Shown: in pieces, positions 3,505 through 38,737 of the stretch
Layout: the number at the start of each line of letters is the position of its first letter
How positions within the stretch are numbered: position 1 is the first letter of the stretch
Virus record (IMG/VR): IMGVR_UViG_3300045919_000305
Coordinates: 1 to 64,000 of that record
Length of the DNA: 64,000 bases
From: a virus
Strand: one strand, 5' to 3'
The notes under the pieces: generated by a model
Databases searched by the model: none
Told to the model about the DNA's origin: nothing
Seen by the model: only the letters and a program-made list of their open reading frames with translations
Made by a program: the position numbers and the translations under genes

Positions 3505-4446
3505 GTGAAAATGTATAAAATCCTCCAAGGGGACTGTTTAGCGTCCCTAAAAACCCTTTCTGATGCCAGCGTAAACGCTTGTATTACATCCCCCCCGTAT
3601 TATGGCTTACGAGATTATGGAGTAGAGGGACAAGCTGGGCTAGAAGCTACGCCCGAAGAATACGTAGCCAATATGGTTAAGGTTTTTCGGGAAGTTAAGC
3701 GGTGCCTAAAAGACGACGGAACTTTGTGGCTTAACATCGGGGATAGCTATGCAGGAAGCGGAAAAGGGCAATGGAACGGAGGTTCGGCCGACCCTAAAAA
3801 CCCCAAGACACAAGGTATGCCTCTGGAGATACAACGCCCTGCAACGCTAGGTTTAAAATCGAAAGACCTTATCGGAATACCTTGGATGCTGGCTTTTGCT
3901 TTACGTGCTGACGGTTGGTACTTGCGTCAAGATATTATCTGGCATAAGCCCAACCCTATGCCGGAGAGCGTTAAAGACCGCTGTACGAAAGCGCACGAGT
4001 ATATTTTCTTACTGAGTAAGAGTCAGAAATATTATTATGATGCTGATGCGATAGCAGAGCCAGCGAAATGGGAGAGGTGGGGTGATCAAACCGAGAATAA
4101 AAAATCACAAGGGAACGCTGGCCGATTAGGGGGTAAAACCATAGCTGAACTACCCATAAAAGACACTAAAAACAAGCGTTCCGTTTGGACGGTAATCCCA
4201 AAAAACTATAAGGGGGCGCATTTTGCGGTGTTCCCTCCAGAACTAATAGAACCTTGCGTACTGGCCTCTTGCCCTGAAAATGGGGTCATCATAGACCCAT
4301 TTGGTGGAAGCGGCACCACAGCAGGCGTAGCGATCAAACACGGGCGGAAAAGCGTTCTATGTGAGTTAAACCCTGAATACTGCGCGATAATGCCGTCACG
4401 AATAAAAGCTATTAGCGGTTACGATATGGAGGATGATTTCATTTGA
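3505..4446 (+). CDS. DNA methyltransferase, beta-class (N4-cytosine or N6-adenine)
   Basis: Catalytic ITSPPYYGLRDY near the N-terminus and AdoMet motif IIDPFGGSGTT near the C-terminus. SPPY favours N4C but does not prove it. Alternative start ATG 3511. Confidence 0.9.
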   Translation: MKMYKILQGDCLASLKTLSDASVNACITSPPYYGLRDYGVEGQAGLEATPEEYVANMVKVFREVKRCLKDDGTLWLNIGDSYAGSGKGQWNGGSADPKNPKTQGMPLEIQRPATLGLKSKDLIGIPWMLAFALRADGWYLRQDIIWHKPNPMPESVKDRCTKAHEYIFLLSKSQKYYYDADAIAEPAKWERWGDQTENKKSQGNAGRLGGKTIAELPIKDTKNKRSVWTVIPKNYKGAHFAVFPPELIEPCVLASCPENGVIIDPFGGSGTTAGVAIKHGRKSVLCELNPEYCAIMPSRIKAISGYDMEDDFI

Positions 4447-5870
4447 TCGCTAAGCTTTTCATTCCTCGTTCATATCAAGCTGCTGGCACAAACTTCATTC
4501 TTGATAACCCCCGTTGTAATCTGCAAGTCGATATGGGATTAGGGAAGACAATTATGGTACTGAATGCTTTAGATATCCTCTATACCTGCGGAGAGTACCA
4601 GCCTACGCTTATCTTGGCGCCGTTACGGGTTGCTCGGACAACATGGAGCGCCGAACTAGCTAAATGGAATCATCTATCAGGGTTAGAGATTTCACCCATT
4701 GTCGGCACGCCAGAGCAACGTATAGCAGCTTTAAAACGCGACGTGCCAGTTTACACGATTAATTATGAAAATATCGTTTGGTTAACTAAATATTTGAAAG
4801 GTGCATGGCCGTTCCGGACAATAATCGCCGATGAATCGACGAAGATAAAAAGCCATCGCGTTCACTGGCAGACTAATAAGCAAGGAACTACCTATCTGTG
4901 CCATTCGCCAAGTTGTGGAGAACGTACTAAAGCTTTAACGCACCTCGCTTGGAAAAAGACACGACGCTGGGTAAACCTTACCGGAACACCGGCTCCGAAT
5001 TCATTGGGGGACCTTTGGGGACAAAACTGGTTCATCGACCAAGGGGCGTCATTAGGCTCTTCCTACTCAGCCTTCGAAGACCGCTGGTTCAAAACTGATT
5101 ACAACGGTTACGATAAAGTCATGCTGCCGCACGCTGAAAAAGAAATCCGTGCGGCTATTGCACCCACGACTTTCACGTTACGCGCCGAAGATTACTTAGA
5201 TCTGGGCGAAGAAATCGTGAATACGATTTACGTGGATCTTCCGCCAAAAGCTCGTAAGCATTACGACGAAATGGAGAAAGATCTCTACACGATCATAAAG
5301 GCAGGCGAAGTCGAAGCGTTTACTGCGGCTACCAAGAGCATGAAATGCCACCAACTCGCCAATGGCGCTTTGTATCACGATGACAAAGGAACCTGGGAAG
5401 CGATTCACGATGAAAAGCTGGACGCTTTGAGAGACGTGATCGAAGAAGCTGGCGGGATGCCGGTTATTGTTTGTTATAAATTCAAAAGCGATCTCGCACG
5501 ATTAAAAAAAGCCTTCCCACAGGGGAAAGCACTTGACACACGACAAGAAACGGAGGATAATTTTAAGTCTGGAAAGATTCCTATTTTATTTATCCATCCG
5601 GATAGCGCAGGTCACGGTATCGATTATATGCAACACGTAACCAACATTATGTGTTTCTTTTCCGTCGATTGGAATGCCGAAACCCGCGATCAGGTTATCG
5701 CTCGAATAGGTAAAGTAAGGCAATTTCAAGCCGGTCTTAATCGACCGGTTTTTATCCACCAGATTATCACTCGCAATTCGGTGGACGAGATCATTTTGAG
5801 AAGACTGGGGACAAAAATGACGGTACAAGAAGCTTTGAAGGAAGGGCTTGCGCGTAGGGGGCTTAAATGA
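4443..5870 (+). CDS. SNF2-family helicase/translocase
   Basis: Motif I DMGLGKT, motif II IIADESTKIK, C-terminal helicase lobe (LFIHPDSAGHGIDY, QVIARIGKVRQ); TTG start overlaps the methyltransferase stop. Confidence 0.85.
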   Translation: MIAKLFIPRSYQAAGTNFILDNPRCNLQVDMGLGKTIMVLNALDILYTCGEYQPTLILAPLRVARTTWSAELAKWNHLSGLEISPIVGTPEQRIAALKRDVPVYTINYENIVWLTKYLKGAWPFRTIIADESTKIKSHRVHWQTNKQGTTYLCHSPSCGERTKALTHLAWKKTRRWVNLTGTPAPNSLGDLWGQNWFIDQGASLGSSYSAFEDRWFKTDYNGYDKVMLPHAEKEIRAAIAPTTFTLRAEDYLDLGEEIVNTIYVDLPPKARKHYDEMEKDLYTIIKAGEVEAFTAATKSMKCHQLANGALYHDDKGTWEAIHDEKLDALRDVIEEAGGMPVIVCYKFKSDLARLKKAFPQGKALDTRQETEDNFKSGKIPILFIHPDSAGHGIDYMQHVTNIMCFFSVDWNAETRDQVIARIGKVRQFQAGLNRPVFIHQIITRNSVDEIILRRLGTKMTVQEALKEGLARRGLK

Positions 5871-16054: not shown

Positions 16055-16081
16055 GAAAGGCGCTATTAGCGCCTTTCTTTT
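16055..16081. terminator. bidirectional rho-independent terminator between convergent units
   Basis: GAAAGGCGCT-ATT-AGCGCCTTTC followed by TTTT on + ; CAGTTTTG follows on the - strand. Confidence 0.75.
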
Positions 16082-16108
16082 CCTCTGGAGAATAGAAAGG
16101 GCAAACGA

Positions 16109-16252
16109 ATGTGGTATAAATTAACCCCTAAAGCGGGGTGTCTTATTTGTTTTGCCGCAATGGGCATCAGCGCATTCAATAGCCGTTGGGAGTCTCTAGT
16201 TATAGCCTCAAGCTTATTAATCGTCTACGCGATTATGGTTAAAATTACTTAA
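16109..16252 (+). CDS. small membrane protein (47 aa), tentative
   Basis: ATG 16109 after AAAGGG; MWYKLTPKAGCLICFAAMGISAF...LLIVYAIMV; lies downstream of the terminator. Confidence 0.25.
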   Translation: MWYKLTPKAGCLICFAAMGISAFNSRWESLVIASSLLIVYAIMVKIT

Positions 16253-16255
16253 AAC

Positions 16256-19200
16256 CTAATCCCCATTCTCGTCCCGCAATCGGTTCTGCTCATAGAGGTA
16301 CGTTAATCTAGGATTCACAGCGTACCCTCTAATCCCTTTTTCCTGCTTGTTTTTAGCCGTTCTAACCACCGATTTGTGGATGCTTTCATAAGTAACCGGC
16401 CAAGTTGGGTGTTTAGCCTGCCAACGCGCCAACTCTTCTTGAGGGACGGGTTCGCCGTTTGCGATCGCTTTTTGAACTTTGTTAACCAGTTTTTGCCGCG
16501 CATCGGAGATCGCAGCTTCCGCGGCTTTGTTATACCCGCGTTCAGCGTACAGCACTTCCATATTAGAGCTGCCCAATCCGATCGCTTGGAATAGCACTTC
16601 CATAGCGGAGGCGTCTTTCAGTTGCTCACCGTTCATGCTTTCGTAACCGTGTTGCGCTAAGCGGATAGCTTTCAGCCCGTCGCCCAAAGCTTTAGGCGTT
16701 GCACTCTCTACGCCGCGTAGTACTTCACCATCGGCCATCATTTTTGCACCGTCAGCGATCTTTTTAATCATACCGCCGAATGGTCCAGCCACTTGAGATA
16801 AGTATTCGGTAGCTGCGTCTTTGCCTTCCAGATCCTTCAAAGGCTCTTGGAAGAAGACATTGCTCAAGTTCATACGGGATGCCAAGTTAACAGGCGTTAA
16901 AGCGTTGCCCAGACCCTTGATCATCGCGGTAGCAAACGTTTCACCGCCCAACTCAGTTAACCCTACCCGTAATTCTTTTTCAATGTCCCACGGCTCATCA
17001 TCGTCGGATGCTGCATTGCCAATTACATTGATTACCATCGAGATTGCGCCCATCAACGGCATACCGAATAAACCAGCCGCCGCACCTTGCATGGCGAAGA
17101 GCGCCATTAACGATCTAGCCGCATTTTGTGCAGTTTCTTTGGCTTCCGCTTTGGCCGCTTTCTCTTCGTCCGTGGTTTCTGGCATTTTTTTCCAGCCTGA
17201 GAACGCATCTGCAGCGGTTTTCCCCCACAGATAAAGCATCGCCTGTGGGTACTTTTTATACTGCATGACCACACCGGCTACCGGTCCTCGGAAGATCCGA
17301 GCCGCGTTTTCAGTCGAGTAGTCCCCGTGTGCATCGTTGTTGACTTTACGAGCGTAATCCATAGCCGCTAAATGGTTGTTGATATCGCCTTGTAACGCTA
17401 AATCATAAGCCGCCATCAGGGTAATTTCACGGTTCATACGCTCGCCGTGGTGGAACATCCAGCCCATTTTTTTGTTAAATTCTTGCAATCGTCCGCCGTA
17501 ATCTTCCCCCTCACGGCCAATACCTAACACATCGAAGAAGTTGGTTCGAGAAACGTCCCCTTCTTCTTTGAAGTTTCGCAGGGCAGATAGCCTACTCCCT
17601 ATTCTATCCATTTCCGCCCGATCGCCGTTATGCGCTTGCAGGTAATCCAACCGCTGCCGCATGATAGTAGAGATCGACGAGTTGCCGTCTTCGTCACGGT
17701 AAAGGTACTCACCATTCGCGTCTTTTTTGTTAATTCCGATAACTGCCTTTAGGAATTCGTTACGTGTTTTGCCAAAAGCCTTAGCCGTTTCCTTAACGCC
17801 GTATTTTCCAGCAGTAATGGGCATGGCTACCACAGGGGTTTGGAATAAGTTCACTAAACCACTGGATAAACCAAAACCCATTGTCATAACGAAATCGAAC
17901 TGACGAATAGCCGAAGCGATTTGGTCCATACCCGTACTCGGCGTGTTTACCATCGCGTTGTAGGTTTTGGTTAATTCCTGCAAAACGTTGGCCGCTTTTT
18001 CCCGATCTTTAGGGGGGATTAATTTAGCCGCTTCGAGTGCTTGCGTGTTTTTGTCCTCAACTCGGTGCAGCGACTCCAGCACGTCCTCTGACGCACCGAA
18101 CTTGCGGCGTAGTTTGATAGCTTCTTCGTAGACTTGTTTCTCTTTCAGGTCGTCGGTTTCCGCCAATAGAGTTTCTAAGGCGTCCTCTTCGTTCAGTTCG
18201 TCCCAATTTGCTTGCAGCATGGCCGCAGCTTTAGTTTCGGCATCAACCTGATCGCGTAAAGAAGTTCTCGAAGCGATATCCAGCGCGCGTCTACCTTCGA
18301 CCAAGACTTGTGCCATTTCACGGCCCTCGGTCATGTTAGCAAGCTGAGAAGCGCCGTGGTGGATGGTATTGGCGAAAGCCCGCATCGCATCTTCATCGAA
18401 CCCTAATGTACCTTTACGGTGCATGGAGTTGTGACGCACGGATATGTCCGGCAAAGTAGCCAGATACATTTGGTGGATCTCGTCTTGCAGCGCTTTGGAA
18501 ATATCCGGAGCGATATCGGCACCCGCTATTTTAGAGTGGATATCCTTCAAGAAGTTATCAGATACCGCGTCACCTATTTGCGAGTTCTGGATATCACTCA
18601 GTGAAGTGCCTTGATCGTTTTCGTTGACCGTGCCGCCGTCTTTGATAAAAGCTTTTAACGCTCTGTCCCTAGCGGGAGTCGAACTGTAGGTTAGAAACCA
18701 CTTCTCGCCTTGCGCATCTTTGCCGTAAAACCAATGATCTCCATACCGTTTTAATGGCGCGTAATACCAGGACAACGATTGCGATTCGAACTTAGACCGA
18801 AGCTGAGCGATCAACGCCGCGCCGGTTTGAGCATCCAAGATAGACTCTTCGATTCGGTTTTCTAAAGCCTCTAGGCGCTGGTTGAATATCTCAGTGTGAA
18901 GCGCATAAGTACCCGCGTAAATGTCTTTAACCGAAGGGTGTTGGGCAAATAGCGTTTCGTAAGCCGGTCTTAAATGTGCGTAAGCCTGACGGCGTAAAAT
19001 GTTTGAATCTTTCCAGCCGTTGCTTGCGCGGATTTGTGTTTGCTTTTGATCAATCTCGCGTAATTTTGCCAAAAACTGCGCCGCCTTATCTTGCGAAGCA
19101 AACGTCGCTGAGTTCTTGTCAGAGAATAACGCGCCGGCGCTTTCTGCAGCCGCTTTGATGTAGCTTCGGCTCTGACCGTTAAATTCGGTCATTGAATAGG

Positions 19201-22200
19201 CTTTAAACCCGCTTGGGGTCGGCTCTACACCTAACCAATCTTTCGACACGTTGATATCTCGCAAGGTAGATTGCTGCATCAAGCGACCAGTTTCTTTGCG
19301 GGCAGGTACCGGCAAGGCTTTCCATTTGATCGAGGTCAACTGGTTTGCTTTGTGTAAATAAGGATCCACCATCGCGCGACGGCGTTGCATCGCTTCTTCG
19401 TAAGCTTTCAGCCCCGGCAGATATTTTTTAGCAATTTCTATAATCTGCCGAACAGACAGCACGGCCAATTTTTCTTTAGCCACAGTGTTTGAGAAGTCTT
19501 CAAAAGCGTTCAGCATTTCGACTGTAGTGGCTCGTGCTGCACCTTCTGGTAACTGCTCCACCGCTTCCCGGATACTGGTAGGGGCGCTAAACATCGGCAT
19601 CCCTTCTGAAAGTATTTTGGCTTTCATTTCGGGCGTGATGATCAGGGCAGGTTGGGACTTAAAACCTTTCTCTTCCAGTTCATATATTGATGAGCGCGCA
19701 TCAGCAGCGGCATCGTAATTCGGAAAATTACCAGATTTTCGGGTTTCCGTTTTCTTATCCGCTAAGTAGTAATCCCCAACCCCGTTAGATGTAGGCCCTT
19801 CCGCCAGAATGGTTATTTCTGGCCCCATACTTCCGGTAGATTTCACCCAACTGGATTTTATCTTCCCACCCATCTTCCGCGCAATCTCATTCGCCGCTTG
19901 GGTAATGAGTGCGGGTTTACCTTGAGCGTTTAAGCCGTTTTCATCGCCATACATAGCTTGCGTCCAATCACCGCCGACTTTTAGATCAAGGCCCGATAAC
20001 TCTTTGGCCACTGGTGAAACTTCACCCTCTGCTTCAAAACCTACCGATTCTTCAGTGCTCTGGCCCTCGTCGTTAAGTATCTTATCCGCTACCCCTTTGC
20101 CCAGGTACTCTTCGAGTTGTTCGGGTGTTTGATTAAATCGGGCGTCTCTATCGTTATCGTTTTTATCAAAGATAACGATATCAAATTTACCATCACGATT
20201 CACATACCGGATTCGATTAATGTGTTGGGATAAATCGTACCGATCCGCTTGTTGATCACCCGTTGTCCACGCTACCGAATCACTGCCGTTATCAATCGCT
20301 TGGCTGATGGCCTTTTTCATTAACAAAGAGATATAGGCGTTCGTTGCCTTGTTATTTGAATCCGTGACGAAGGGTGCGGGAGGAACACCGAACTCGGGCA
20401 ACCGTTCCAACCTTCGTATCTCATCTTGGATAACGACCCTTTCGGTTTGCAGCGTATCGAATTCCTCGTCCACATCATCGGGAAACCTGAGCGCCAATTC
20501 GCGTACACGCTTGTGTAATTCTTGATTTCTATTTTTCAACTCGACGAGCTTCAGCTCTTCGGTATTCGTTAAGGGGCGATTAAACCCCGATTTCCGTCCC
20601 GCTTGACTTCGTTGCGACTGCACTTCTTCAAGGAACAAGACTTTATTACCGTTCGCATCAATTCGGGTATTGTGTCGAATCCAGCCAATTTGCTTTCCTT
20701 GCCCAACATCACCAAAATGCGTTGTATCGTGTTGGTTATGGGGTTCTGTAGTCGGAATTGTAACGACGAGTTCTCGGTAATCTGTGCCGCCGGGTAGGGT
20801 AAGTTGCGCGGAATTGTGCTTGGCTTCTGTAAATTCCGCATTTGTAGATACGTTGTGAAATTCATCGATAGCATCGAGCCATTTTTTCGCTTGCCCTTGA
20901 AACTTTTCTGGGAGGTCATACGACTCTAAATCCCCGTCCTCCAAAGCGTAATACAGGTCATCATCAAAATATTCTTTACCGTGTATCTGTAACGGTAGAT
21001 TTTCTTTTCTAATTCCGTCAAAAAGTTCTTTCGCATACCCATCGGCTTCCGCTTTGAGCGCTTGCTTCCGCTCTTCTGGAGAAATCCCACCCAACATCAC
21101 ATCCTCAACCTTCACGCCATTAGCGTCCAGAAATTCACTAACTTGTGCCCGTGTAACTTTACCAGAAAGCGAATCTAACCAATCGGTAATCCCCGACCAG
21201 TAAATTTCATCTTTCTTTACGTCAAATCTAGGCGCGTTGGCTACCAGCCAGACTTTAACTTGTTGCGCATTGCCGAATACCTTTTCCGGTGCCTTTTCAA
21301 TCGCTTTGCTTAAAGCAGAATAGAAGCGCGGTGCGGGTTCTGAAGTTTGCGCACTAAACATCGGTGCTGCTTCAATATCCGCAGCACTAAAAGGGCTAGA
21401 TTGGATTCCACGACCTGTTCGCCCCTCGGTTTCTTCCGCAGTCCGTTGACCTTCCCAAAGCGGCACCCCACCCCAACGTTTAGTATTGAGTGCAGGCACA
21501 ATTGAAACTACAGAATAAACTTGGCCGCCGTTTAAAGCGTCTTTCTGCTTGCTGACAATTAAAGCTTGTTGTAGCCTTGAAGATCGGAACACATAGTGCC
21601 CTCGGTCTTGGAATATTTGATCAAAGCCTTTAGCAATTGAGGAAACGTGACGTGCGTAATTTTCCGCAACTTCGCCGGTGTAGCCCGGAACCATCCGGCG
21701 GTCGCCTTCCCGTACCGCGTTATCGTGAATGTGCGTAATGCCAAAACCTTTATGCTCGGCAGTCGCTTTACCGACGCGTAATTTAATCGGTAAACGCTCA
21801 ACGCCTTTAGCTACGGCACTAGCCGGAGTCATGGCGATAGCACCGTTCATATTGCCTTCGTAAGCTGGTGTTTCAGGAACGATGAAATCTTCAACCGATT
21901 TACGGATACCGTGCAGACGACGGGACTCCATGACTTCACTATTAAATTCGCGTGGGGCGTTTAAATCCGTTTTTATTGCGGATTGCAGACTCGCTTTTAG
22001 CAAATCGTGTAAATCGTTTTCCGTCATGGTACCCGCGATAAAGCTGCGGCCTAATCCATGAGCGACCAAGAATGATTTGATTTGGGATAATAGGCGTTTA
22101 AACCAACCCGCTTGCGGTGCGTATTCACCTAATTTAGCGATAACTTCCGCGATAAACGGCTCGCTACCTTCGCCCATGTGCGCATAAGGTTTGTTGCCAT

Positions 22201-25200
22201 TGGCGTCAGTGCCATTCAGCACTTTATTCCATGTCAGATTAGCCAGCGATCCGGGGATCTTGGCTTGATTAGTGATTTGGTTTTGCAGCGCTTGGTAGGC
22301 TTTCGTGCCCAGCATCCGACGAAGGTTGAAATGCTCCCCGATCTCGTGCAGAACTACAGCATTCAATCGTTTTTTGGGGATCGCGTTAATATCAAGAAAC
22401 GCCTTCCCCTTTAAATAAACTGCTTCTGCAGCCGAATATTTTTCCGGATTGACTGGCCAGCCTTCTTTGCCTTGGGTGAAATTCAGCACGCCGCTTTCTA
22501 CTAAACGGGCTAACCCTGGGCCGTACGCTTCGCCTAAATGCGCGATCGCTTCTTCAGGTGAGTTAAAACGGTCGTTTAGTTGTTGCTGAACGTCCGGTTC
22601 TTTAAGTAACGCTTCCGCTATTTTGGATTGCGTTGTCTCAACAGGCCCTGCGTTAGTAGTTGTTGCTCCAGCTCCGCCTCTTTTTCGTCGTGGTGCCTTT
22701 TCAGCTCTAGGAGGCGCTTGCGGTGCTGCCCCATTATCCTCGCTGGTTGGTCGGCTAACTCCGACATCCCCAGCCGTTCCAGTCTCGTTTCGTCTGACAT
22801 ACTCTTCGCCTCGTTTACCAGCGTCAAGTTCCCGGCTGGATCGTTCAAAAATAGTGGATAGCTCTGTTCCGGGTATTATAGGGCTTTGGCCTAGGTAAAG
22901 GCCAACTCCATTTGGCTTTTCAGCTCCAGGCTTAGATTTCGGGTGCGCTATTTGGTCTAAACCCGTTTGTTTAGTGTATTCCGCGACGCGTTGCTTAGCA
23001 TTCTGCATCGCTTGGTTTATAGACGCATCTGACCCACCAGTGATCACCGCACTCAGCTCATCGCCGCCATGCCGTATTAATACCGCGTTGCTACCGGCTT
23101 TCTGCATTTCGTCGGCAAAAATGTCACTAATGTCGCGGAATACCGGATTCGCTATCGCGTGGTTGTTGTTAAAATGCGAGTTCAAACCACCTAAATTAGC
23201 AATATCCGCATCGACAAAGTGAGCCGTTTCGCCGGTATCCGCAACGTGTTTCATCACCGCTTCAATGGTGGGTTCCTTATCGTGCGGTAAATGGAAACCC
23301 GTAACAGCGTCCATGTCTTCTTTAGGAACGATTTTTTCTAGTGCCGCTTCATCCGTAAGCCCCGCATCACGGGCAAGCTGCCGGCGTTCCGCTACCCGCT
23401 TTTCGCTAGGTGACATGAAATCCGTCTGCCTGCGATCTTGAGGGGAGCGTTCGGTTATTTCTTGCCCTTCTTGCGATGGTTGTTCTTGCGGGGTTGCGTT
23501 CTGGCTTTGGTCATTTAGTTGCTCTGGTTGTAGTGAGGATGTTTCGGATGGTGCTTGTTCAATATTCCCGTTCCCTTGTCCGCTTGGTTCCACTCCGCTG
23601 CTGTCGATTGTGGGATTTCCACCCGCTTTGCGAATTCCGGGTTGTGCGCTGCCGCCGCCATCAGACGGGCTTGGGCTGGACTCTTGGAGGGCGTTTTGGT
23701 TCTCCGTTAATTGCGCTCGGCGTTCACGCTCGGCGGTAATTAGTTGTTTCTGTTCGCTAGTTGCGGCCCGCTGACGGAATAAATTAGTTAGCGCAGCATC
23801 GTCCAAAGTCTGTATGGTAGTTTGGAAAGCTTCAGATTGCGGTTGGGTAATTCCGGCATCTAGGGCGGCGTTGGCTGCCCTGTTCAAAACACCATCGGGT
23901 GCAGCGGCTAACTGCTCTTTAATGGGGGCAGCGGCAGCCTCTGACGCCGCTTGTATTTGCTCTTCAGGCGTCGGTGGTGTTCTGGAAGCGATGTGCATTT
24001 CCATTGCGTCCAACACGGTTTGGGCCGAATCCCCAGGTTTAGTCGGGATTTCCAATTTCGCGGCAGCATCGGCTAATCGTTTAGTAACGACTTGACCTAA
24101 TCCAACAGAACTATACGCTTTCTTATAGTTATCTATAAAGTTTTGACTTTCATCAAGAACGGCTTGCTCGTGCTCGTCCGGAGGCTGAAAACCCTGTTCT
24201 TCTTGGGCGCCCGGTAATACTTCCGCCGCCGGTGTTTCTGATTCTTGCGGCATATAATCCGCCAACATCGTATCGATATCCGCAGGTTCTGCAGGCAAGT
24301 TACGTTGCTGCTCAATGATCGCTTGTTCTTCAGGGGTTGTTTCAGGCGTTACGGGTTGCGCATGGGTTAAAGCGCCTGTCGGTGCGCCCATACCAAAACC
24401 AGCTACCGCGCCAAGGGCTGCGGCATTGCCTACCCCTTCCATCGCATCTTTACCCAAAGCGACGTTAGAAGCCGCCTGTTCTTGGCCGGATTGCGCAGTT
24501 TCTTGTGCTGCTTCGACTCCGCCCCCTTCCAAAGCTCGGCGTGCGGCGTTCTTAGTAGTCGGTGCAATGGCGTTTTGGCCGCCGATTAGCGCGGTGTTTA
24601 CGTCCCCGACGCCTAATTTATTGGCTATTTTTCCGAAACCGCCCGTAATTGCGCCCGTTGCGGCACCGCTTCCCGCTAAAATTGCGGTCTGCTCCGGGGT
24701 TAATAAACCGTTTTCCGTTTGTTGCCGCACTTGTTCGACGTTTTGCCCTGCCGTTACGCCACCTTCGCCAATTGCGCCAGCGGCTAGGGGACTCAATGCG
24801 GGCGCCGCTTTCATCACGCCTTTAGCAATGCCCGCACCGCCTAACATACTCGGTGCGGATTCTAAAATCGTGTGGCCAGCAACGGAGGGGTTTTCTGCGA
24901 CGGCTTTTAGTGTAGGGACAAAACCCTCAGCATTTTGAACGTTTTCAAAAGCTTGTTTCTGTGCGGGGGAATAATTTTCGGAAAGAATATCTTTAGCGCG
25001 TTTAAAATCGACCCCATTTTCTTGCAACGCTTTACCAACACGTCCGCCGGTAGGGATATCCGCTAAACCGACTGCGGTTTCTGGAACTCCAATAGCGCCT
25101 TTGAGTGCGGTAATCCCAACGTCTTTGGCACGATCCCCGAAGGATGTTTCAGGGGCAGGTTGCTCGGGTTTCGGTAAGTAATCCGCCAAAATCGTATCAA

Positions 25201-25270
25201 CATCAGGGGCTTGATCTTTTGGCATATAATCAGCCAACATAGAATCGATATCTGGTGCGGTATCCGCCAT
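16256..25270 (-). CDS. 3004-aa polyvalent-type virion/ejection protein
   Basis: Single uninterrupted 9-kb ORF ending the late operon. Gly/Ala-rich hydrophobic N-region, GGDEF-like module (aa about 652-800), PLKRYG (PLxRFG-type) motif at nt 18740-18757, hydrophobic segments near the C-terminus. Confidence 0.7.
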   Translation of the reverse strand: MADTAPDIDSMLADYMPKDQAPDVDTILADYLPKPEQPAPETSFGDRAKDVGITALKGAIGVPETAVGLADIPTGGRVGKALQENGVDFKRAKDILSENYSPAQKQAFENVQNAEGFVPTLKAVAENPSVAGHTILESAPSMLGGAGIAKGVMKAAPALSPLAAGAIGEGGVTAGQNVEQVRQQTENGLLTPEQTAILAGSGAATGAITGGFGKIANKLGVGDVNTALIGGQNAIAPTTKNAARRALEGGGVEAAQETAQSGQEQAASNVALGKDAMEGVGNAAALGAVAGFGMGAPTGALTHAQPVTPETTPEEQAIIEQQRNLPAEPADIDTMLADYMPQESETPAAEVLPGAQEEQGFQPPDEHEQAVLDESQNFIDNYKKAYSSVGLGQVVTKRLADAAAKLEIPTKPGDSAQTVLDAMEMHIASRTPPTPEEQIQAASEAAAAPIKEQLAAAPDGVLNRAANAALDAGITQPQSEAFQTTIQTLDDAALTNLFRQRAATSEQKQLITAERERRAQLTENQNALQESSPSPSDGGGSAQPGIRKAGGNPTIDSSGVEPSGQGNGNIEQAPSETSSLQPEQLNDQSQNATPQEQPSQEGQEITERSPQDRRQTDFMSPSEKRVAERRQLARDAGLTDEAALEKIVPKEDMDAVTGFHLPHDKEPTIEAVMKHVADTGETAHFVDADIANLGGLNSHFNNNHAIANPVFRDISDIFADEMQKAGSNAVLIRHGGDELSAVITGGSDASINQAMQNAKQRVAEYTKQTGLDQIAHPKSKPGAEKPNGVGLYLGQSPIIPGTELSTIFERSSRELDAGKRGEEYVRRNETGTAGDVGVSRPTSEDNGAAPQAPPRAEKAPRRKRGGAGATTTNAGPVETTQSKIAEALLKEPDVQQQLNDRFNSPEEAIAHLGEAYGPGLARLVESGVLNFTQGKEGWPVNPEKYSAAEAVYLKGKAFLDINAIPKKRLNAVVLHEIGEHFNLRRMLGTKAYQALQNQITNQAKIPGSLANLTWNKVLNGTDANGNKPYAHMGEGSEPFIAEVIAKLGEYAPQAGWFKRLLSQIKSFLVAHGLGRSFIAGTMTENDLHDLLKASLQSAIKTDLNAPREFNSEVMESRRLHGIRKSVEDFIVPETPAYEGNMNGAIAMTPASAVAKGVERLPIKLRVGKATAEHKGFGITHIHDNAVREGDRRMVPGYTGEVAENYARHVSSIAKGFDQIFQDRGHYVFRSSRLQQALIVSKQKDALNGGQVYSVVSIVPALNTKRWGGVPLWEGQRTAEETEGRTGRGIQSSPFSAADIEAAPMFSAQTSEPAPRFYSALSKAIEKAPEKVFGNAQQVKVWLVANAPRFDVKKDEIYWSGITDWLDSLSGKVTRAQVSEFLDANGVKVEDVMLGGISPEERKQALKAEADGYAKELFDGIRKENLPLQIHGKEYFDDDLYYALEDGDLESYDLPEKFQGQAKKWLDAIDEFHNVSTNAEFTEAKHNSAQLTLPGGTDYRELVVTIPTTEPHNQHDTTHFGDVGQGKQIGWIRHNTRIDANGNKVLFLEEVQSQRSQAGRKSGFNRPLTNTEELKLVELKNRNQELHKRVRELALRFPDDVDEEFDTLQTERVVIQDEIRRLERLPEFGVPPAPFVTDSNNKATNAYISLLMKKAISQAIDNGSDSVAWTTGDQQADRYDLSQHINRIRYVNRDGKFDIVIFDKNDNDRDARFNQTPEQLEEYLGKGVADKILNDEGQSTEESVGFEAEGEVSPVAKELSGLDLKVGGDWTQAMYGDENGLNAQGKPALITQAANEIARKMGGKIKSSWVKSTGSMGPEITILAEGPTSNGVGDYYLADKKTETRKSGNFPNYDAAADARSSIYELEEKGFKSQPALIITPEMKAKILSEGMPMFSAPTSIREAVEQLPEGAARATTVEMLNAFEDFSNTVAKEKLAVLSVRQIIEIAKKYLPGLKAYEEAMQRRRAMVDPYLHKANQLTSIKWKALPVPARKETGRLMQQSTLRDINVSKDWLGVEPTPSGFKAYSMTEFNGQSRSYIKAAAESAGALFSDKNSATFASQDKAAQFLAKLREIDQKQTQIRASNGWKDSNILRRQAYAHLRPAYETLFAQHPSVKDIYAGTYALHTEIFNQRLEALENRIEESILDAQTGAALIAQLRSKFESQSLSWYYAPLKRYGDHWFYGKDAQGEKWFLTYSSTPARDRALKAFIKDGGTVNENDQGTSLSDIQNSQIGDAVSDNFLKDIHSKIAGADIAPDISKALQDEIHQMYLATLPDISVRHNSMHRKGTLGFDEDAMRAFANTIHHGASQLANMTEGREMAQVLVEGRRALDIASRTSLRDQVDAETKAAAMLQANWDELNEEDALETLLAETDDLKEKQVYEEAIKLRRKFGASEDVLESLHRVEDKNTQALEAAKLIPPKDREKAANVLQELTKTYNAMVNTPSTGMDQIASAIRQFDFVMTMGFGLSSGLVNLFQTPVVAMPITAGKYGVKETAKAFGKTRNEFLKAVIGINKKDANGEYLYRDEDGNSSISTIMRQRLDYLQAHNGDRAEMDRIGSRLSALRNFKEEGDVSRTNFFDVLGIGREGEDYGGRLQEFNKKMGWMFHHGERMNREITLMAAYDLALQGDINNHLAAMDYARKVNNDAHGDYSTENAARIFRGPVAGVVMQYKKYPQAMLYLWGKTAADAFSGWKKMPETTDEEKAAKAEAKETAQNAARSLMALFAMQGAAAGLFGMPLMGAISMVINVIGNAASDDDEPWDIEKELRVGLTELGGETFATAMIKGLGNALTPVNLASRMNLSNVFFQEPLKDLEGKDAATEYLSQVAGPFGGMIKKIADGAKMMADGEVLRGVESATPKALGDGLKAIRLAQHGYESMNGEQLKDASAMEVLFQAIGLGSSNMEVLYAERGYNKAAEAAISDARQKLVNKVQKAIANGEPVPQEELARWQAKHPTWPVTYESIHKSVVRTAKNKQEKGIRGYAVNPRLTYLYEQNRLRDENGD

Positions 25271-25300
25271 GTACTTTCCTTTGGGTGGGGTTATTCTGAC

Positions 25301-29156: not shown

Positions 29157-31060
29157 TATGCCGTGGTAGCCAAAGATACCATACTATTAAGCGATTGAAG
29201 GGCTGCAGAGGCCATGTTACTATAACCGGACGCTATGGCCTCAGTCTTTTTCAAATCTAATTCCGTATACCCTTGTTGCAACCGGTAGAAGTTTGAAAGA
29301 GATTCGACACTCCCTTTAAACGCTTCGATTCGGGCGGTAATAAAGGCGATGTCTTTCTGCAAAGCGCCTTTATAGACTTCCAAATTTGCTTCGACGTTGG
29401 TTTTATAAACGTCCAGACCGAGTTTCTTGATCTCCGCTTCCGCTGTAAATTTTTGCAAAGCGATTTCAGCGGTTGTTTTATAAGCGTCAATCTGTGCGCT
29501 GTATTGCGTTATTTTTGCGACGTTGGTTTTAACATCCGCATCAAGGATCGTTTTTTGAACGTCCACTTGCAACGTTACGGCTTTCAATTGTGCTTCATAA
29601 ATGCTGAGTTTGGAAAGTTCCCCTTCCAGCTTTGCTTTATCCCCTTCGATGGCCGCTTTGTAGGCTTCAAAAGCTGCGACTCGCGCCCTGACACTGGTTT
29701 CAAAAACTTGTGCCCGAACAGCGTACTCTTTGATTCGCAGCTCTTCTACCGAAGCGCGTTTAGTTATGGCGTCGATGATTGCGCTGTATCGCTGAACCTG
29801 TAATTGCTGCACATCGACTTGAATCTTAGCGCCTTCGATCTGTTTAAATTCGACATCCGCGCGGAGCTTCAATGCCTCCAAGCTGACCTTATACCCCTCC
29901 AAGCCTGACAAAGCAGCTTTCAATTTGACTTCGTATTGATCGTTCAAGGCTTTCATCACGGCCAGCGCGAATTCATGGCGTGATTTTTCATGCTCAAATA
30001 CGGTGATCAGCTTATCCGTTATTTCTTTTGATAGCGTTGTAGCATTTTGAATCATCCCTAAGCCGGTCTGTGCGTACTGAACAGCTAAGCTGCGCACCTG
30101 TTGCATTTGCGTTGAGGCCAGATTCATTACGAATTGAAGGTGCTGGATCTCTGCTTTACGGCGTTCAATGTAAACGTCCGTTGATACGCCGGCCAAGGTT
30201 TTTGCACCCTCGATTCGGGCTTTGTTCAAAGCCGAAACCGTAGCGCCTGGAGGAATGATGAATCCACGTTTATCGCCCTGGGCAAAAGTTGTCGCTTCGG
30301 AGGCTTTATATTCCACCTCGGCTCGCGCTCGCGCTCTGGAATATAGGGCCGCTTCGAACTGATCGGGTAAAATGCTGTTATTCATCCCCGCTAAAATCTT
30401 TGCGTTAATCGCGTCCCGTTGGGAATAATATTCTGGTGCGTATTTCGATACCCAGCCATCCACCACATCATCGATAAACGATTTCATGATGGGCAATGCC
30501 GCATCGTATTTCGCTTTCATATAATCCGCGTAATTTGTCGGCGCCGGGATTGCTTCGGGTGTCGCTATCGGTTCGTAACTCGGTAATTGTAGTGCCGGTG
30601 GTGTTCCGATATTGATAGGAGTTATCTGCGGGATGTTAACATCCATCAGGACCGGCTTGGCCGTATTCACCAAATCGTTATAGATATCCTCGACGTGAAG
30701 ATCGGGGGCGGCTTCGTTCCAATCAGGCATAACGCTAGAGGGGAGTGTTTCAGTGAATAGCCCTGTCGTATTTATCGTCGGTGCGGTAGGTAAACCTGGG
30801 GAGGCGATTGTTGGTAAGTCAACTAGGATCGGAACCCCTGGTAACGTCCCATTAGGCGGTGTGTACGTCGGCAACGGTGTAGTATCTGCAGGCGTTGCCG
30901 TATACGCAGAAACAAAATCTGTTGGTGCTACCCCGAAGGACGTATACCCTATAGTGCCCCGTTTACCGTCTATCTCAGCTATAGCGCCCGCTGCGGCGGC
31001 TGCAAAAGTATCTGCGCGATCGACCGCAATACCCACTAATTGATCTACTGAAGCCGCCAT
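29156..31060 (-). CDS. coiled-coil virion protein (internal/ejection or tape-measure-like), 634 aa
   Basis: Pro/Thr-rich N-third, then about 350 aa of heptad-like Ala/Glu/Lys/Gln-rich sequence; coupled to both neighbours. Confidence 0.5.
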   Translation of the reverse strand: MAASVDQLVGIAVDRADTFAAAAAGAIAEIDGKRGTIGYTSFGVAPTDFVSAYTATPADTTPLPTYTPPNGTLPGVPILVDLPTIASPGLPTAPTINTTGLFTETLPSSVMPDWNEAAPDLHVEDIYNDLVNTAKPVLMDVNIPQITPINIGTPPALQLPSYEPIATPEAIPAPTNYADYMKAKYDAALPIMKSFIDDVVDGWVSKYAPEYYSQRDAINAKILAGMNNSILPDQFEAALYSRARARAEVEYKASEATTFAQGDKRGFIIPPGATVSALNKARIEGAKTLAGVSTDVYIERRKAEIQHLQFVMNLASTQMQQVRSLAVQYAQTGLGMIQNATTLSKEITDKLITVFEHEKSRHEFALAVMKALNDQYEVKLKAALSGLEGYKVSLEALKLRADVEFKQIEGAKIQVDVQQLQVQRYSAIIDAITKRASVEELRIKEYAVRAQVFETSVRARVAAFEAYKAAIEGDKAKLEGELSKLSIYEAQLKAVTLQVDVQKTILDADVKTNVAKITQYSAQIDAYKTTAEIALQKFTAEAEIKKLGLDVYKTNVEANLEVYKGALQKDIAFITARIEAFKGSVESLSNFYRLQQGYTELDLKKTEAIASGYSNMASAALQSLNSMVSLATTA

Positions 31061-32985
31061 TATTTAACCCGCCTTTGTAATTGGTCTGGTAGATATTCTA
31101 CCCCTTGCAAATGTTCTATACCTTCTATTTTAAAAGCCCAATAACGTCCCTTATTACCCCGGCCTGGATGCGCTTTTCGCCCTTTGAAAGTCGATTTTAC
31201 GCTCGGCTTATTAACTCCATCCACGATGGGTGTCACTTTATAAGTGTCGTCCCCATTGAGGTAAACGTAAGGGACATTTTTAGATTGGAAGATACCGAAA
31301 TCATCTTCCATTGTTATTATCGTTCCGTTAATAGCCGCCGTCAAATCCGTATTACCGTCCAATAAATATAGCCCATCCGATTTGACCCCATAGGATTTCC
31401 CGCCTATGGTTGCAATGTGCATAAATGGGTAATTGACGTACCGCGTAACCGCGTTATTTACCACATTCATCACCAAAGCTTCTGTATTTACCGAAGCGCT
31501 CGCAAACTGGATAACTGGAAACGTCGCGATGCCTTGTCCGGTTATCGTTAATTTCGAAAGCCCTGAAGAAAAGCCTCCGCCTATAACGGTAATCGTCGCC
31601 GGTGCTAAAGCGTAAGAGCTTAAAACCGTTCCAAACCCTCGGCCTGTTACCGTAATCGTCTCACTCGTTAACGCGGAATACCCTAAAGACGATCCGAAAC
31701 CTCGTCCGGTAACTACCGAGCCCCCGTATATTTGTGGAGAAGTCGAAATGCCTCCGCCAGATACGTTGATAACCGCTGGCGCAGAATAGCTAAAACCGAG
31801 TTGCGTCGCTAACCCGCGCCCCGTGACGGTAAATTCGTTATTAGCGAGTACCGTAATTACTGGAGTTTGTGTGAACCCCTGCCCGGTGGCTATTCCACCA
31901 CCAAATACCTGGGGTGTAGTAGAAAAGCCCCGTCCTGTTACGGTATTTGGAAAATCCGGGGTGATTGCTATTATAGGGAACGGAGTAGAAAATCCGCGTC
32001 CAGAAATGTTAACGTTAGGTACATTCAGTGCCGAATGAAACCCACGTCCTGTTGTATTAATGCTGGCGGCATTGAATAACGCTACCCCTCCTAAAAGCGA
32101 CATGGGTAAGGAAGCCGGAGTTCCTGTAAACGGGGTATTCGTCGTCGTTATGACAGTAGGAATATATCCAGAAGCTACAATACCTAACGAAGTCGGGGTA
32201 TCCGTATACGGCAATGTCGCGATACCCGCTGCTGTATTACGAGTAGGGGCGATAACCCCAGCTAACGGATTGAGGTACAGATCCCGTACTTCCGACTGGG
32301 ATAATTTCCTATTATATAGCCTTAGGTAGTCAAACGTGGTATCTGCGTTGCCTGTACCTCCTATTCTGCTAGTTGTTGGAGTGCCAACGGTAGTACCTGA
32401 TGTCGCTGCGGTCGCATATAAAACCCCATCGATGTACAAAACCCAGTCAGAAGCCGTTGTACTGTTAGGACTGTTACCTGTCAGCACGTAATTTCGGTAT
32501 TTCCCTACACCCGATGCCTGTGTAGGCATTGTCGAAGACTTTATCGGTTGTCCTGCAGTAGCAGGCGCGCGCCCCCAATAAAGAGGCCCTACCGCTTGAT
32601 CATTAGTAGCCGTTATGTGGAAATAGTCGGAAGTCCCTGCCAGCTTTAAAGTGAGCCGACCCATCGTAGTTGTGGATGTACCAGTATCTTTAGTACGCCA
32701 ACACACACTAAAGGGTTGCCCTGTAGTTAGAAAGGTTCCTGTACTTAGGTCTATAACTGCCGTTGTAGCATTTAATAGGACTTGACTACCTGTGTCCCCC
32801 GATACGTGGACGGGTGTGTTGGTATGTGCGCCTGTAATACGCCCCACTAAATCAACAGACGAAGTACCGCTAGGTTCGTTTAAAACCCAATAATTTAACA
32901 GTCCTACCGATAAGGGGTGCGCTTTATTTAAGTACGGCTTTCCAAGCGGTTTAATCCTTGTTTTTGGATTGGAGTTCAGTGCCAT
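31060..32985 (-). CDS. LamG-like (concanavalin-type) domain tail/fibre protein with [TS]G[RQG]G[FIL] repeats
   Basis: LNYWVLNEPSG ... FDYLRLYNRKLSQSEVRDLYLNP is the typical LamG_3 frame; about 11 TGRGF-type repeats at aa 311-490. Confidence 0.55.
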   Translation of the reverse strand: MALNSNPKTRIKPLGKPYLNKAHPLSVGLLNYWVLNEPSGTSSVDLVGRITGAHTNTPVHVSGDTGSQVLLNATTAVIDLSTGTFLTTGQPFSVCWRTKDTGTSTTTMGRLTLKLAGTSDYFHITATNDQAVGPLYWGRAPATAGQPIKSSTMPTQASGVGKYRNYVLTGNSPNSTTASDWVLYIDGVLYATAATSGTTVGTPTTSRIGGTGNADTTFDYLRLYNRKLSQSEVRDLYLNPLAGVIAPTRNTAAGIATLPYTDTPTSLGIVASGYIPTVITTTNTPFTGTPASLPMSLLGGVALFNAASINTTGRGFHSALNVPNVNISGRGFSTPFPIIAITPDFPNTVTGRGFSTTPQVFGGGIATGQGFTQTPVITVLANNEFTVTGRGLATQLGFSYSAPAVINVSGGGISTSPQIYGGSVVTGRGFGSSLGYSALTSETITVTGRGFGTVLSSYALAPATITVIGGGFSSGLSKLTITGQGIATFPVIQFASASVNTEALVMNVVNNAVTRYVNYPFMHIATIGGKSYGVKSDGLYLLDGNTDLTAAINGTIITMEDDFGIFQSKNVPYVYLNGDDTYKVTPIVDGVNKPSVKSTFKGRKAHPGRGNKGRYWAFKIEGIEHLQGVEYLPDQLQRRVK

Positions 32986-34538: not shown

Positions 34539-35660
34539 TTAAAATTTGTTAAACGCCGTTCCCCCGGCATCGTGCAACGCCACGTAGCGCTGTATTCCGT
34601 TATTATATACCATTGCTGTCGAACAGCTAGTCCCCATTGGTAAGGAAACTTTGGTTTCTGTCAAGGGGGTAAATGGAAAAGCGCTGCAAATTCCTCGGAC
34701 AGTGTGGATCAAGAGATAGTCATTGGGGAATTCGGTATCGGGCTTACCCTGTATTTTTACAATGGGTCTGCCGGGAACAACGCCGTAATTCGCCAATTTA
34801 ATAAGCCCTTCTTCGGTCGTATACGCATAGATTTCTTTTTGCGTCGCAATAATGATACCTTGTGGGACGGCTTTTAGGACTTCAACTCGTCCGGGAATAA
34901 TAAAATAATCGGTATCGTAGTTGAACAAATGGTAGTGAAACGGTTTACTAAACCAGACTACCGAATGTTCCCCTAAATCAGCGCTCGCCCAAAGTTTTGA
35001 TTCGAAAATCTCTATTTTATCGGCGTTATCCGGTAATGGCGCGGAATTAACCTGTGGAGGGGCTATCTGATTTCCGTATTTAACGTCATAAAAAACCTCA
35101 CCGCCCGCTTCGGTCGCATAAACGTTAGTGGTGTAGCCCGCCAATGCCGTAGGAGTAATCAAAAGTTCTCCCGGTGCCGTGAGCTCTACAGTTTCGACTA
35201 GAGAAGCTCCGCCTTCTAAGCCATCGGCATTCGAATATGTATAAATAACGTTGTAAAGCCCGGCAGGTTTTGTGCCTCCGGTTATCACGATATCCGGACT
35301 GCTGACCGGAGTTGGAATCCTGAGATGCGAAACCGTTTCCCCGAAAACAGATAAGCCGTCGTTCGTAAATAACGTTCTGGAAAAATCACAAAACTCCGTA
35401 GCCGTCGTGGATGCTATCGTAATTAGGGTCAGATCGATACCTACTCTATACAAAACGCCAGAAGAAACAATGTATGTTTCACCATCGAGGGTTGTATGCG
35501 AAGTCGTAATAGGTACGGATAGCGCCGATTGAAACCCTAAGCGCTGAACGAGACCGCCCCTATTATTAACATCGACGTTGATAGCGTCCTGCAGCGCAGA
35601 CTTTTCAATATCCCTTGGGGATACGGTATTTTGAATGCCCTTAAACGCTTTGACTATCAT
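34539..35660 (-). CDS. tail structural protein (373 aa)
   Basis: Position and beta-rich sequence; function not recognisable by eye. Confidence 0.5.
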   Translation of the reverse strand: MIVKAFKGIQNTVSPRDIEKSALQDAINVDVNNRGGLVQRLGFQSALSVPITTSHTTLDGETYIVSSGVLYRVGIDLTLITIASTTATEFCDFSRTLFTNDGLSVFGETVSHLRIPTPVSSPDIVITGGTKPAGLYNVIYTYSNADGLEGGASLVETVELTAPGELLITPTALAGYTTNVYATEAGGEVFYDVKYGNQIAPPQVNSAPLPDNADKIEIFESKLWASADLGEHSVVWFSKPFHYHLFNYDTDYFIIPGRVEVLKAVPQGIIIATQKEIYAYTTEEGLIKLANYGVVPGRPIVKIQGKPDTEFPNDYLLIHTVRGICSAFPFTPLTETKVSLPMGTSCSTAMVYNNGIQRYVALHDAGGTAFNKF

Positions 35661-38699: not shown

Positions 38700-38737
38700 G
38701 GCTTTACCTTACGCTTTAATAAACGTGATAGTGTAGT

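Follow-up and report, generated by a model that had tools for sequence, protein, structure and literature searches.

The giant gene and its setting

The DNA analyzed here, which we call the window, is a 64,000-nucleotide stretch of viral DNA (positions 1 to 64,000 of IMG/VR record IMGVR_UViG_3300045919_000305), and the gene in question is a single open reading frame (ORF) of 3004 codons that runs from ATG to stop on its minus strand at 16256..25270 (stop codon included). An earlier note on this DNA had pointed out one uninterrupted frame of this length at this place, without giving its strand, and had taken it for a polyvalent-type protein at the end of the late operon. The sequence AGGAAAG (25274..25280, minus strand) stands directly before the ATG at 25270; read directly from the sequence, it is Shine-Dalgarno-like, with AGGA 6 nt 5' of the start codon. 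A protein called independently in a JGI metagenome (P0001) is identical to the 3004-amino-acid (aa) product (100% identity). A frame of this length cannot arise by chance in DNA of ~49% GC, as we infer from a probability of (61/64)^3004, or ~e^-144.

Upstream of the giant gene, and on the same strand, are genes for the large terminase (56942-58633), an SU10-type portal (53227-55668), the major capsid protein (50094-51104), and a protein of the "head closure Hc3"/tubular-tail-B type (34539-35660). On its 3' side are terminator-like hairpins at 16124-16139 and 16055-16077 (jointly 16055..16139, not assigned to a strand), which lie between convergent operons and are followed by convergent plus-strand genes; exonuclease and helicase genes are found on the plus strand at 2 to 6 kb of the window. 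The scan for terminator-like hairpins returned 4 sites versus 1.0 expected. Because virion genes lie upstream on the same strand, and terminator-like hairpins and convergent genes lie downstream, we conclude that the giant gene closes the late operon, as the earlier note had proposed.

The 16055-16077 hairpin has a perfect 10-bp stem with T-runs on both sides, is placed between the convergent blocks of plus- and minus-strand genes, and is likely a bidirectional terminator.

Conserved ends and a variable middle

Among 5.8 billion proteins searched, 598 matched; they are giant phage or prophage proteins of 1.7 to 5.2 thousand amino acids (kaa), many of them named PLxRFG proteins. The domains of these homologues include ART-PolyVal, InPase, PBECR5, LPD1/5/23/38/39, RadC, GGDEF, and methylase-helicase. 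For an architecture map, 119 homologues were laid on the 3004-aa protein and the cargo was split at the boundaries of high-scoring segment pairs. The two ends are near-universal: the N-module region (aa ~50-300) is common to 111 of the 119 homologues, at ~45-55% identity, and the C-module region (aa ~2100-3000) is common to 60 to 95 of them. The middle is common to 3 to 25 homologues only; its first part (aa 350-1300) is present in 3 to 6 and its second part (aa 1300-1900) in ~23. The protein is thus predicted to be a chassis, made up of the N- and C-modules, with swappable cargo between them. All of the modules described below are on the minus strand, and coordinates are those of the window.

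A low-complexity linker of Gln, Pro, Ser, Glu, and Ala (aa 312-640; 23351..24337) is common to the closest relatives only; aa 301-400 and 501-600 are rich in Gln, Ser, Glu, and Pro, which agrees with the linkers described earlier. Hydropathy analysis gave a strong transmembrane-like helical hairpin at aa 2717-2754 (17009..17122; Kyte-Doolittle value 1.71, the strongest such segment) and weaker segments at aa 2458-2476 and 283-301. The two that are near the C-terminus are the ones that the earlier note had quoted (FDFVMTMGFGLSSGLVNLF, aa 2458-2476, and LMALFAM...VINVIG, aa 2721-2751), and segments equivalent to the hairpin are present in Erwinia phage PEp14 gp27. The other peptide blocks quoted there were also located: AEHKGFG... 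at aa 1171-1197, PRFYSAL... at aa 1314-1334, IYWSGITDWL at aa 1356-1365, and THFGDVG... at aa 1517-1556.

Neither Pfam nor NCBIfam gave an RNA polymerase, methylase, SNF2, or helicase domain in the 3004-aa protein, and we therefore regard it as neither DarB-like nor a virion RNA polymerase (vRNAP). When the whole protein and profiles of its modules were compared with PDB sequences, only marginal GGDEF matches were obtained, and Foldseek comparison of two AlphaFold models with the PDB gave nothing at E<=1e-3. Weak Foldseek matches to GNAT and transporter structures were rejected as noise (TM-scores ~0.05-0.25).

The N-module and the leader peptide

The N-module (aa 46-311; 24338..25135) is the Gly/Ala-rich region to which the earlier note had drawn attention. 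Its composition is as described (Ala makes up 18-24% and Gly 13-21% of aa 101-300), and what the note overlooked is that this region is the most conserved part of the family. It is weakly hydrophobic and is a candidate membrane-inserting ejection module. It is 45.7% identical to the N-module of the giant proteins of phages F116, H66, and LKA5 and 32% identical to the vRNAP of Schitoviridae phage XC38 (E = 5e-25 pairwise, 2e-9 database-wide), and it matches phrog_2206, the N4 vRNAP family (E = 4.6e-13, profile positions 204-426). A hidden Markov model (HMM) of 112 N-module sequences matches the interior of PEp14 gp27 (aa 398-716, E = 1e-7), and its match to Bcep22 gp75 is borderline. Comparison of the N-module with ICP2 gp6 gave no match. 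These results indicate that the N-module is homologous to the N-terminal domain of N4-like vRNAPs. The N-terminal domain of N4 gp50 inserts into nanodiscs, and membrane-spanning helices are predicted for its residues 224-278; it has been proposed to belong to an inner-membrane complex, while the remainder of N4 gp50 is translocated like beads on a string (PMC13434306, PMC13492108); this design was proposed for the passage of N4 gp50 through a ~35 A channel (PMC13434306). N4 gp50 and the Schitoviridae vRNAPs resemble the predicted product of the giant gene in that each is a giant ejected protein, encoded by the last gene of the virion operon, with an N-terminal membrane-associated domain homologous to the N-module. 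In contrast, the cargo of N4 gp50 is an RNA polymerase, and its C-terminal domain has no detectable relation to the C-module.

The very large size of the protein and the weak match to phrog_2206, "virion RNA polymerase," could be taken to mean that the giant gene encodes a vRNAP or a tape-measure protein. However, the phrog_2206 match covers positions 204-426 only, which are the N-terminal domain, and no RNA polymerase domain was found with Pfam, NCBIfam, or the PDB. There is also no match to a tape-measure family, and the relatives are short-tailed phages (PMC4819975, PMC5217972). This identity is refuted at the sequence level, and we give it practically no credence. The earlier note had itself named a tape measure or vRNAP devoid of PLxRFG and polyvalent domains as the competing outcome, and this is not what the profile searches returned.

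The vRNAP gp14 of Acinetobacter phage XC38 (N-module at aa 68-373) and nACB1 carry the N-module clearly, while N4 gp50 is reached via the PHROG family profile only. The distribution of the N-module suggests that it has been exchanged between vRNAPs and PLxRFG proteins or that it has diverged fast.

Ahead of the N-module is a tandem duplicated acidic/aromatic leader peptide (DIDSMLADYMP at aa 7-17 and DVDTILADYLP at aa 23-33; 25172..25252), and directly after the N-module is a third copy, DIDTMLADYMP (aa 331-341; 24248..24280), which is common to the closest relative, P0002, only. The consensus of the peptide is D[IV]D[ST][MI]LADY[ML]P. Leader sequence differs between lineages, and the duplication recurs (e.g., VLDTIRNDY x2, DTLKQYES x2, and FDYDxxGxP x2); for 42 of 82 homologue leaders, <=1 of 200 shuffles attained the score of the best 8-mer pair. 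Duplication is not evident in the leaders of the N4 or XC38 vRNAPs. We speculate that the duplicated leader is a docking or packaging signal.

The C-module

The C-module (aa ~2150-2990; 16301..18823) is an all-alpha region of the PLxRFG or "tail-700" type. The NCBIfam model NF032893 (PLxRFG domain-containing protein, tail-700) matches it at 423.7 bits against a cut-off of 100 (E = 1.4e-126); aa 2400-2988 fall on positions 151-678 of this ~680-position C-terminal model, and there is a second matching stretch. The sequence PLKRYG, which the earlier note had picked out at 18740..18757, is at aa 2172-2177 and is the PLxR[FY]G signature. In Y2170-A-P2172-L-K-R2175-Y-G2177, the first Tyr and the Pro, Leu, Arg, and Gly residues are invariant in 18 aligned homologues, and the present protein has Tyr where the consensus has Phe. 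The motif is therefore where the earlier note had placed it, but the name PLxRFG, which had been credited to the group of Aravind, is an NCBI family name and occurs 0 times in the text of Iyer 2017 that was consulted.

An AlphaFold model of aa 1915-3004, built from an 18-sequence alignment, is almost entirely helical, with a predicted local distance difference test score (pLDDT) of 72. The C-module matched nothing in the PDB, either by sequence or by fold. In the BFVD database, its best Foldseek matches are pieces from the C-termini of other polyvalent proteins of phages (E = 1e-31 to 1e-20, TM-score ~0.6), and further down are "internal virion protein D," or IVP-D, of roseophages CRP-4/5 (E = 2.6e-6 at best) and the ~1400-aa proteins of ICP2_2011_A and CW02; these IVP-D-type matches have E values of ~3e-6 to 3e-4 and low TM-scores of 0.18-0.29. 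By hhalign, the C-module aligns with H66 gp60 over 626 columns (probability 100%, E = 6.3e-46), beginning at the YAPLSRFG motif of H66 gp60 itself. It also aligns over 423 columns with ICP2 gp6, which belongs to phrog_12003, "internal virion protein" (probability 94.7%, E = 5.7e-8), with aa 893-1360 of ICP2 gp6 placed on aa 2453-2956 of the 3004-aa protein. Of the features that characterize the IVP-D family, homology to the RIO-1 group (ICP2/CW02 type) and extensive alpha-helicity were thus found, and direct homology to T7 gp16 was not. Proteins of the T7 gp16 and ICP2 gp6/phiRIO-1 gp37 type are, like the C-module, large, all-alpha, and internal to the virion. They differ from the present protein in being ~1300-1400 aa long with little or no cytoplasmic cargo, and T7 gp16 has an N-terminal transglycosylase.

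The C-module is also the part of the protein that raises the possibility of a DarB-like antirestriction function, i.e., protection of incoming DNA by a methyltransferase-helicase of the virion. At its C-terminus, the protein has a match to phrog_10089, "DarB-like antirestriction" (E = 2e-63), and cultured relatives are annotated in this way. However, this match is confined to profile positions 4107-4612 of 4647, which are the shared PLxRFG tail, and the protein has no methylase, SNF2, or helicase domain by Pfam or NCBIfam; what it carries is a GGDEF-like module, a peptidase-like module, modules C and D, and LPD39. We consider a DarB-like function highly improbable. The proteins that bear this name make a useful comparison. 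PEp14 gp27 has a C-module (HMM E = 3.7e-214) and an internal N-module at aa 398-716, and PEp14 gp27, Pavtok gp27, and the "DarB-like" Bcep22 gp75 and JC1 gp69 occupy the same operon position as the giant gene. In contrast to the present protein, these giants have 4500-5000 aa and carry transglycosylase, methylase, and helicase cargo, and Bcep22 gp75 has only its borderline N-module match and no C-module match.

The cargo modules

Module A (aa 654-830; 22781..23311) is a palm domain of a divergent, GGDEF-like type whose catalytic motif is intact, and it is a predicted nucleotidyl cyclase. In GGDEF domains, the GGDEF hairpin is catalytic, an Asp residue of the first strand binds metal, and an upstream RxxD forms an inhibitory I-site. 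All of the GGDEF-type matches to module A agree, and D689, N698, and GGDE[LI] (GGDEL at aa 735-739 here) are invariant in 5 homologues, with D689 aligned with an Asp of the DosC DxD. The catalytic hairpin and metal-binding Asp are therefore present. The base-reading position is occupied by N708 in each of the 5 homologues, and GGDEL has no RxxD upstream of it. N708 sits at what we take to be the position of the guanine-reading Asp of diguanylate cyclases (D344 of PleD). The earlier note had called this module GGDEF-like, and its catalytic GGDEL and D689 bear this out, although the curated GGDEF cut-offs are not reached.

Module B (aa 891-1131; 21878..22600) has the signature of a zincin-like metallopeptidase, H975-E976-x-x-H980...E1042, and is a putative HExxH...E peptidase. 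Across 120 homologous segments, H975, E976, H980, and E1042 are conserved at 98-100%; they are invariant in the module alignment, and module B was found in most of 272 giant proteins (152 domain matches listed). The match of homologue P0004 to Zincin_1 is weak (E = 0.13). A zincin-like peptidase is regarded as the processing hub of polyvalent proteins by Iyer 2017. This module was overlooked by the earlier note, which had left most modules without assignment.

Module C (aa 1132-1293; 21392..21877), which holds the AEHKGFGITHIH block, is rare, being found in P0002, P0003, P0025, and a few cluster representatives, and its fold is unassigned. Its AlphaFold model is not usable because the alignment is too shallow and the pLDDT is <50.

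Module D (aa 1305-1899; 19574..21358), which holds the PRFYSAL...WSGITDWL and THFGDVG...EEVQSQ blocks, is in contrast a widespread, unannotated module of polyvalent proteins. It was found in 8287 cluster representatives at E<=1e-3 and in 5779 at E<=1e-10, nearly all of them in giants of 2-6.8 kaa, and in some proteins it is present in multiple copies (two or three in P0020, P0040, and P0043). Across 25-30% identity, ~20 polar and Gly residues are kept near-invariant, among them P1493, G1494, G1495, Y1498, E1500, H1518, R1532, E1549, Q1551, K1652, and Y1678. The conserved motifs are LPGGxxYRE, HF..R.N.R.D..G..LF.EE.QS, PxAPF, K, and RYDL. The model of module D has a pLDDT of 75-95, and no match to it was found in Pfam (LPD models included), NCBIfam, PDB sequences, or Foldseek-PDB. 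Module D is probably an enzyme.

A PMFS motif at aa 1892-1895 (nt ~19586-19597) ends module D, and a copy at aa 1303-1306 (nt ~21353-21364) directly precedes it; the family consensus is EG[ML]P[LM]FS[RK], and the motif may be a domain-end signature. The loose pattern P[LMIV]F[SA] was observed 51 times across homologues versus 24.5 expected. Since this enrichment is only ~2-fold and the pattern mainly marks the C-terminal end of module D, we do not claim it as a cleavage or processing site.

The last of the cargo is an LPD39 domain (aa 1919-2144; 18839..19516), which matches Pfam PF18858 at 27.7 bits against a cut-off of 27 (E = 2.5e-6) and has a counterpart, in the same relative place, in both P0004 and P0005.

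It could be argued that the middle of the protein consists of degenerate spacers that set its length or the volume of the capsid core and that the protein is purely structural, an ejection or core protein with no enzymatic role in the host. The ends are conserved and the middle is freely swapped, GGDEF and LPD39 score at or below their family cut-offs, and modules C and D and the peptidase module do not match any characterized enzyme. However, degenerate spacers are difficult to reconcile with the conservation of HExxH...E over 120 segments, with the invariance of D689 and GGDE[LI], or with the retention of ~20 polar and Gly residues by module D despite such low identity. In addition, relatives carry cargo that is clearly enzymatic (ART, InPase, PBECR, and methylase-helicase). 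We therefore think that a purely structural protein is unlikely.

Relationship to known giant virion proteins

Several disparate domains, including one of LPD type, are joined in one large polypeptide (LPD39, the GGDEF-like module, and HExxH...E), and the gene is located among late virion genes. These are the features of the polyvalent class of phage proteins named by Iyer 2017, in which LPD39, the zincin-like MPTase hub, and GGDEF are all among the polyvalent-protein domains. Assignment to the polyvalent/PLxRFG class, which the earlier note had proposed, is thus supported by the NF032893 and LPD39 scores and by the polyvalent-type domains of the homologues. The polyvalent proteins of that paper resemble the present protein in being giant, late-encoded polypeptides that combine numerous disparate domains. 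They differ in that, in the text that was consulted, searches with the N-terminal region of the N4 vRNAP recovered only related phages and the term PLxRFG is absent.

The giant gene gave no megablast match to 50,697 phage records, and it therefore has no close cultured relative. By tblastn, the C-terminal 860 aa match, at 25-28% identity, the giants of Erwinia phages PEp14 and Pavtok, Klebsiella phages LASTA and SopranoGao, Serratia phage Parlo, Pseudomonas phages Skulduggery and Itty13, Vibrio phage douglas 12A4, Agrobacterium phage Atu_ph08, and Sinorhizobium phage PBC5. Hardies 2016 assigned H66 gp60, F116 p60, douglas 12A4, PBC5 p23, BcepMigl gp69, and the C-terminal domain of N4 gp50 to an extended T7 IVP-D (gp16) family that "variably hosts domains destined for the cytoplasm" (PMC4819975). 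Homology of the present protein to the F116 group of IVP-D is given by the H66 gp60 C-terminus and by the tblastn matches to douglas 12A4 and PBC5, both of which are IVP-D in Table 2 of that paper (PMC4819975). Since the class had been described by Hardies 2016 (F116-group IVP-D) and Iyer 2017 (polyvalent), the protein is of a known kind and is a further member of an already described class of giant podovirus proteins. Three papers lend independent support to the mechanism proposed below. Among more distant relatives, JC1 gp69 has been detected in virions with mass spectrometry (PMC9144972), and infection by PTXU04 depends on a polyvalent protein of 2198 aa (PMC11879866). The Casjens laboratory has argued that giants of such type must traverse the conduit unfolded (PMC8402733).

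The closest of the known systems is that of H66 and F116. In addition to the N-module identity given above, H66 gp60 is matched by the C-module from the PLxRFG motif to the end, it is encoded by the last gene of the virion operon and followed by a terminator, as in the present phage, and both genomes have a tubular-tail-B/"Hc3" gene (H66 gp54 type) of the same PHROG. In contrast, H66 gp60 has 3787 aa and an S-adenosylmethionine-methylase-like site in its cargo (PMC4819975), and the present protein has no methylase. In the H66 record, gp60 bears the PLxRFG name and is annotated as "verified by mass spectrometry as part of the virion."

This comparison bears on whether the protein enters the virion at all. 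A late cytoplasmic multi-enzyme that is not packaged could act in the producing cell, for example in modification of DNA or protein or in superinfection exclusion. Presence in the virion is deduced from relatives, and some polyvalent proteins may act against rival elements, according to Iyer 2017. However, the gene is at the end of the virion operon, the virion-verified H66 gp60 has both end modules, and the N-module is common to injected vRNAPs. A cytoplasmic enzyme of this kind seems to us very unlikely.

Proposed role of the protein

Based on the end modules, the operon position, and the relationship to the F116 group, we consider it probable that the giant gene encodes a large ejection protein, internal to the virion and of the IVP-D type found in the F116 group, i.e., a delivery chassis with polyvalent cargo. 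The earlier note had described the protein as an injected multi-effector array; the cargo modules fit that description, but the protein is not an array only, as both ends are ejection-protein modules. Because of these ends, and because the group has already been placed in the T7 gp16/IVP-D family, it is by analogy probably an essential structural ejection protein as well.

Several results weigh against this interpretation. The hydrophobic segments are mostly weak, with just one above a Kyte-Doolittle value of 1.6. The 112-sequence N-module HMM does not match N4 gp50 itself. Comparison of the C-module with T7 gp16 by hhalign was not significant, whether with the single sequence (E = 0.15) or with a 13-sequence C-terminal profile (E = 0.31), and neither was comparison with the C-terminal domain of N4 gp50 (E = 0.16). 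Since these direct T7 and N4 comparisons are not significant, the link to the characterized T7 ejectosome rests on Hardies 2016 and on ICP2-type intermediates; in that work, the RIO-1 plus F116 set and the T7 plus phiKMV plus epsilon15 set are joined at an HMM-HMM E value of 8e-19, and the joined sets are needed for the link (PMC4819975). Module A scores below the cut-offs of both Pfam GGDEF (PF00990; E = 0.013, 15.8 bits versus 23.8) and TIGR00254 (E = 0.023, 14.4 bits versus 37.4), and the best PDB match of its 5-sequence profile is DosC at E = 0.012. Module B, a putative zincin, has no match among Pfam models or PDB sequences. In BLAST comparisons, the large ORFs that adjoin the giant gene are not similar to N4 gp51-53. 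Finally, it is H66 gp60 that has been found in the virion, and a place there for the present protein is predicted by homology.

If the giant gene does encode such an ejection protein, a few copies would be packed in the capsid late in infection, with the duplicated N-terminal peptide as a possible docking signal. On adsorption, the protein, in a partly unfolded state, would thread the portal-tail channel in the manner of beads on a string. The N- and C-modules, which are hydrophobic, may help to build or anchor the inner-membrane end of a transient DNA conduit, and the cargo modules would refold on the cytoplasmic side, where the peptidase may release cargo. The cargo would then be active ahead of all phage gene expression, e.g., by way of a cyclic nucleotide that perturbs host signaling or defense. 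A more elaborate proposal is that the end modules are a universal delivery chassis, that the lineage-specific leader is a capsid or portal docking signal that co-evolves with its partner, that module D is a new family of delivered enzymes, and that the GGDEF-like module makes a non-canonical cyclic nucleotide at entry that jams or decoys nucleotide-based immunity. Taken as a whole, this combination is tentative and, in our estimation, rather unlikely to hold in every part.

In many podoviruses, both temperate and lytic, 15-25% of the genome goes to giant PLxRFG/polyvalent proteins, almost none of whose modules has been tested. Without methylase-helicase cargo, the present protein gives a clean domain map in which delivery (the N- and C-modules) can be told from payload. 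Two of its payloads are directly testable, namely, the GGDEF-like cyclase with its altered base-reading residue and the very widespread ~600-aa module D. The chassis idea, if true, could explain how cargo of megadalton scale is packaged and passes through a ~35 A tail channel, and the chassis could be used to deliver engineered proteins. What is of remaining interest (module D, the GGDEF-like module, and the chassis and leader) is a property of the whole family and is not special to the present window.

Other open reading frames of the window

The ORFs that neighbor the giant gene gave no BLAST similarity to virion proteins of Bcep22 or PEp14. Three further ORFs were noted upstream of the giant gene. 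A 318-aa ORF at 40629-41585 (minus strand), inside the virion operon, has weak matches to helix-turn-helix families (HTH_8/Fis type, E = 6e-8; HTH_10; HTH_30) and could be either a regulator of late genes or a DNA-binding protein resembling a small terminase. The product of a 641-aa ORF at 31060-32985 (minus strand) resembles concanavalin-A-like lectins/glucanases (Laminin_G_3) over aa 76-233, with a score below the cut-off (E = 4.5e-5), and its C-terminus matches a "virion structural protein" PHROG; we take it for a probable fibre or receptor-binding protein. The third, a 451-codon ORF with a GTG start at 37381-38736 on the plus strand, is antisense within the 810-aa gene at 36267-38699 and is unusually long for a shadow ORF.

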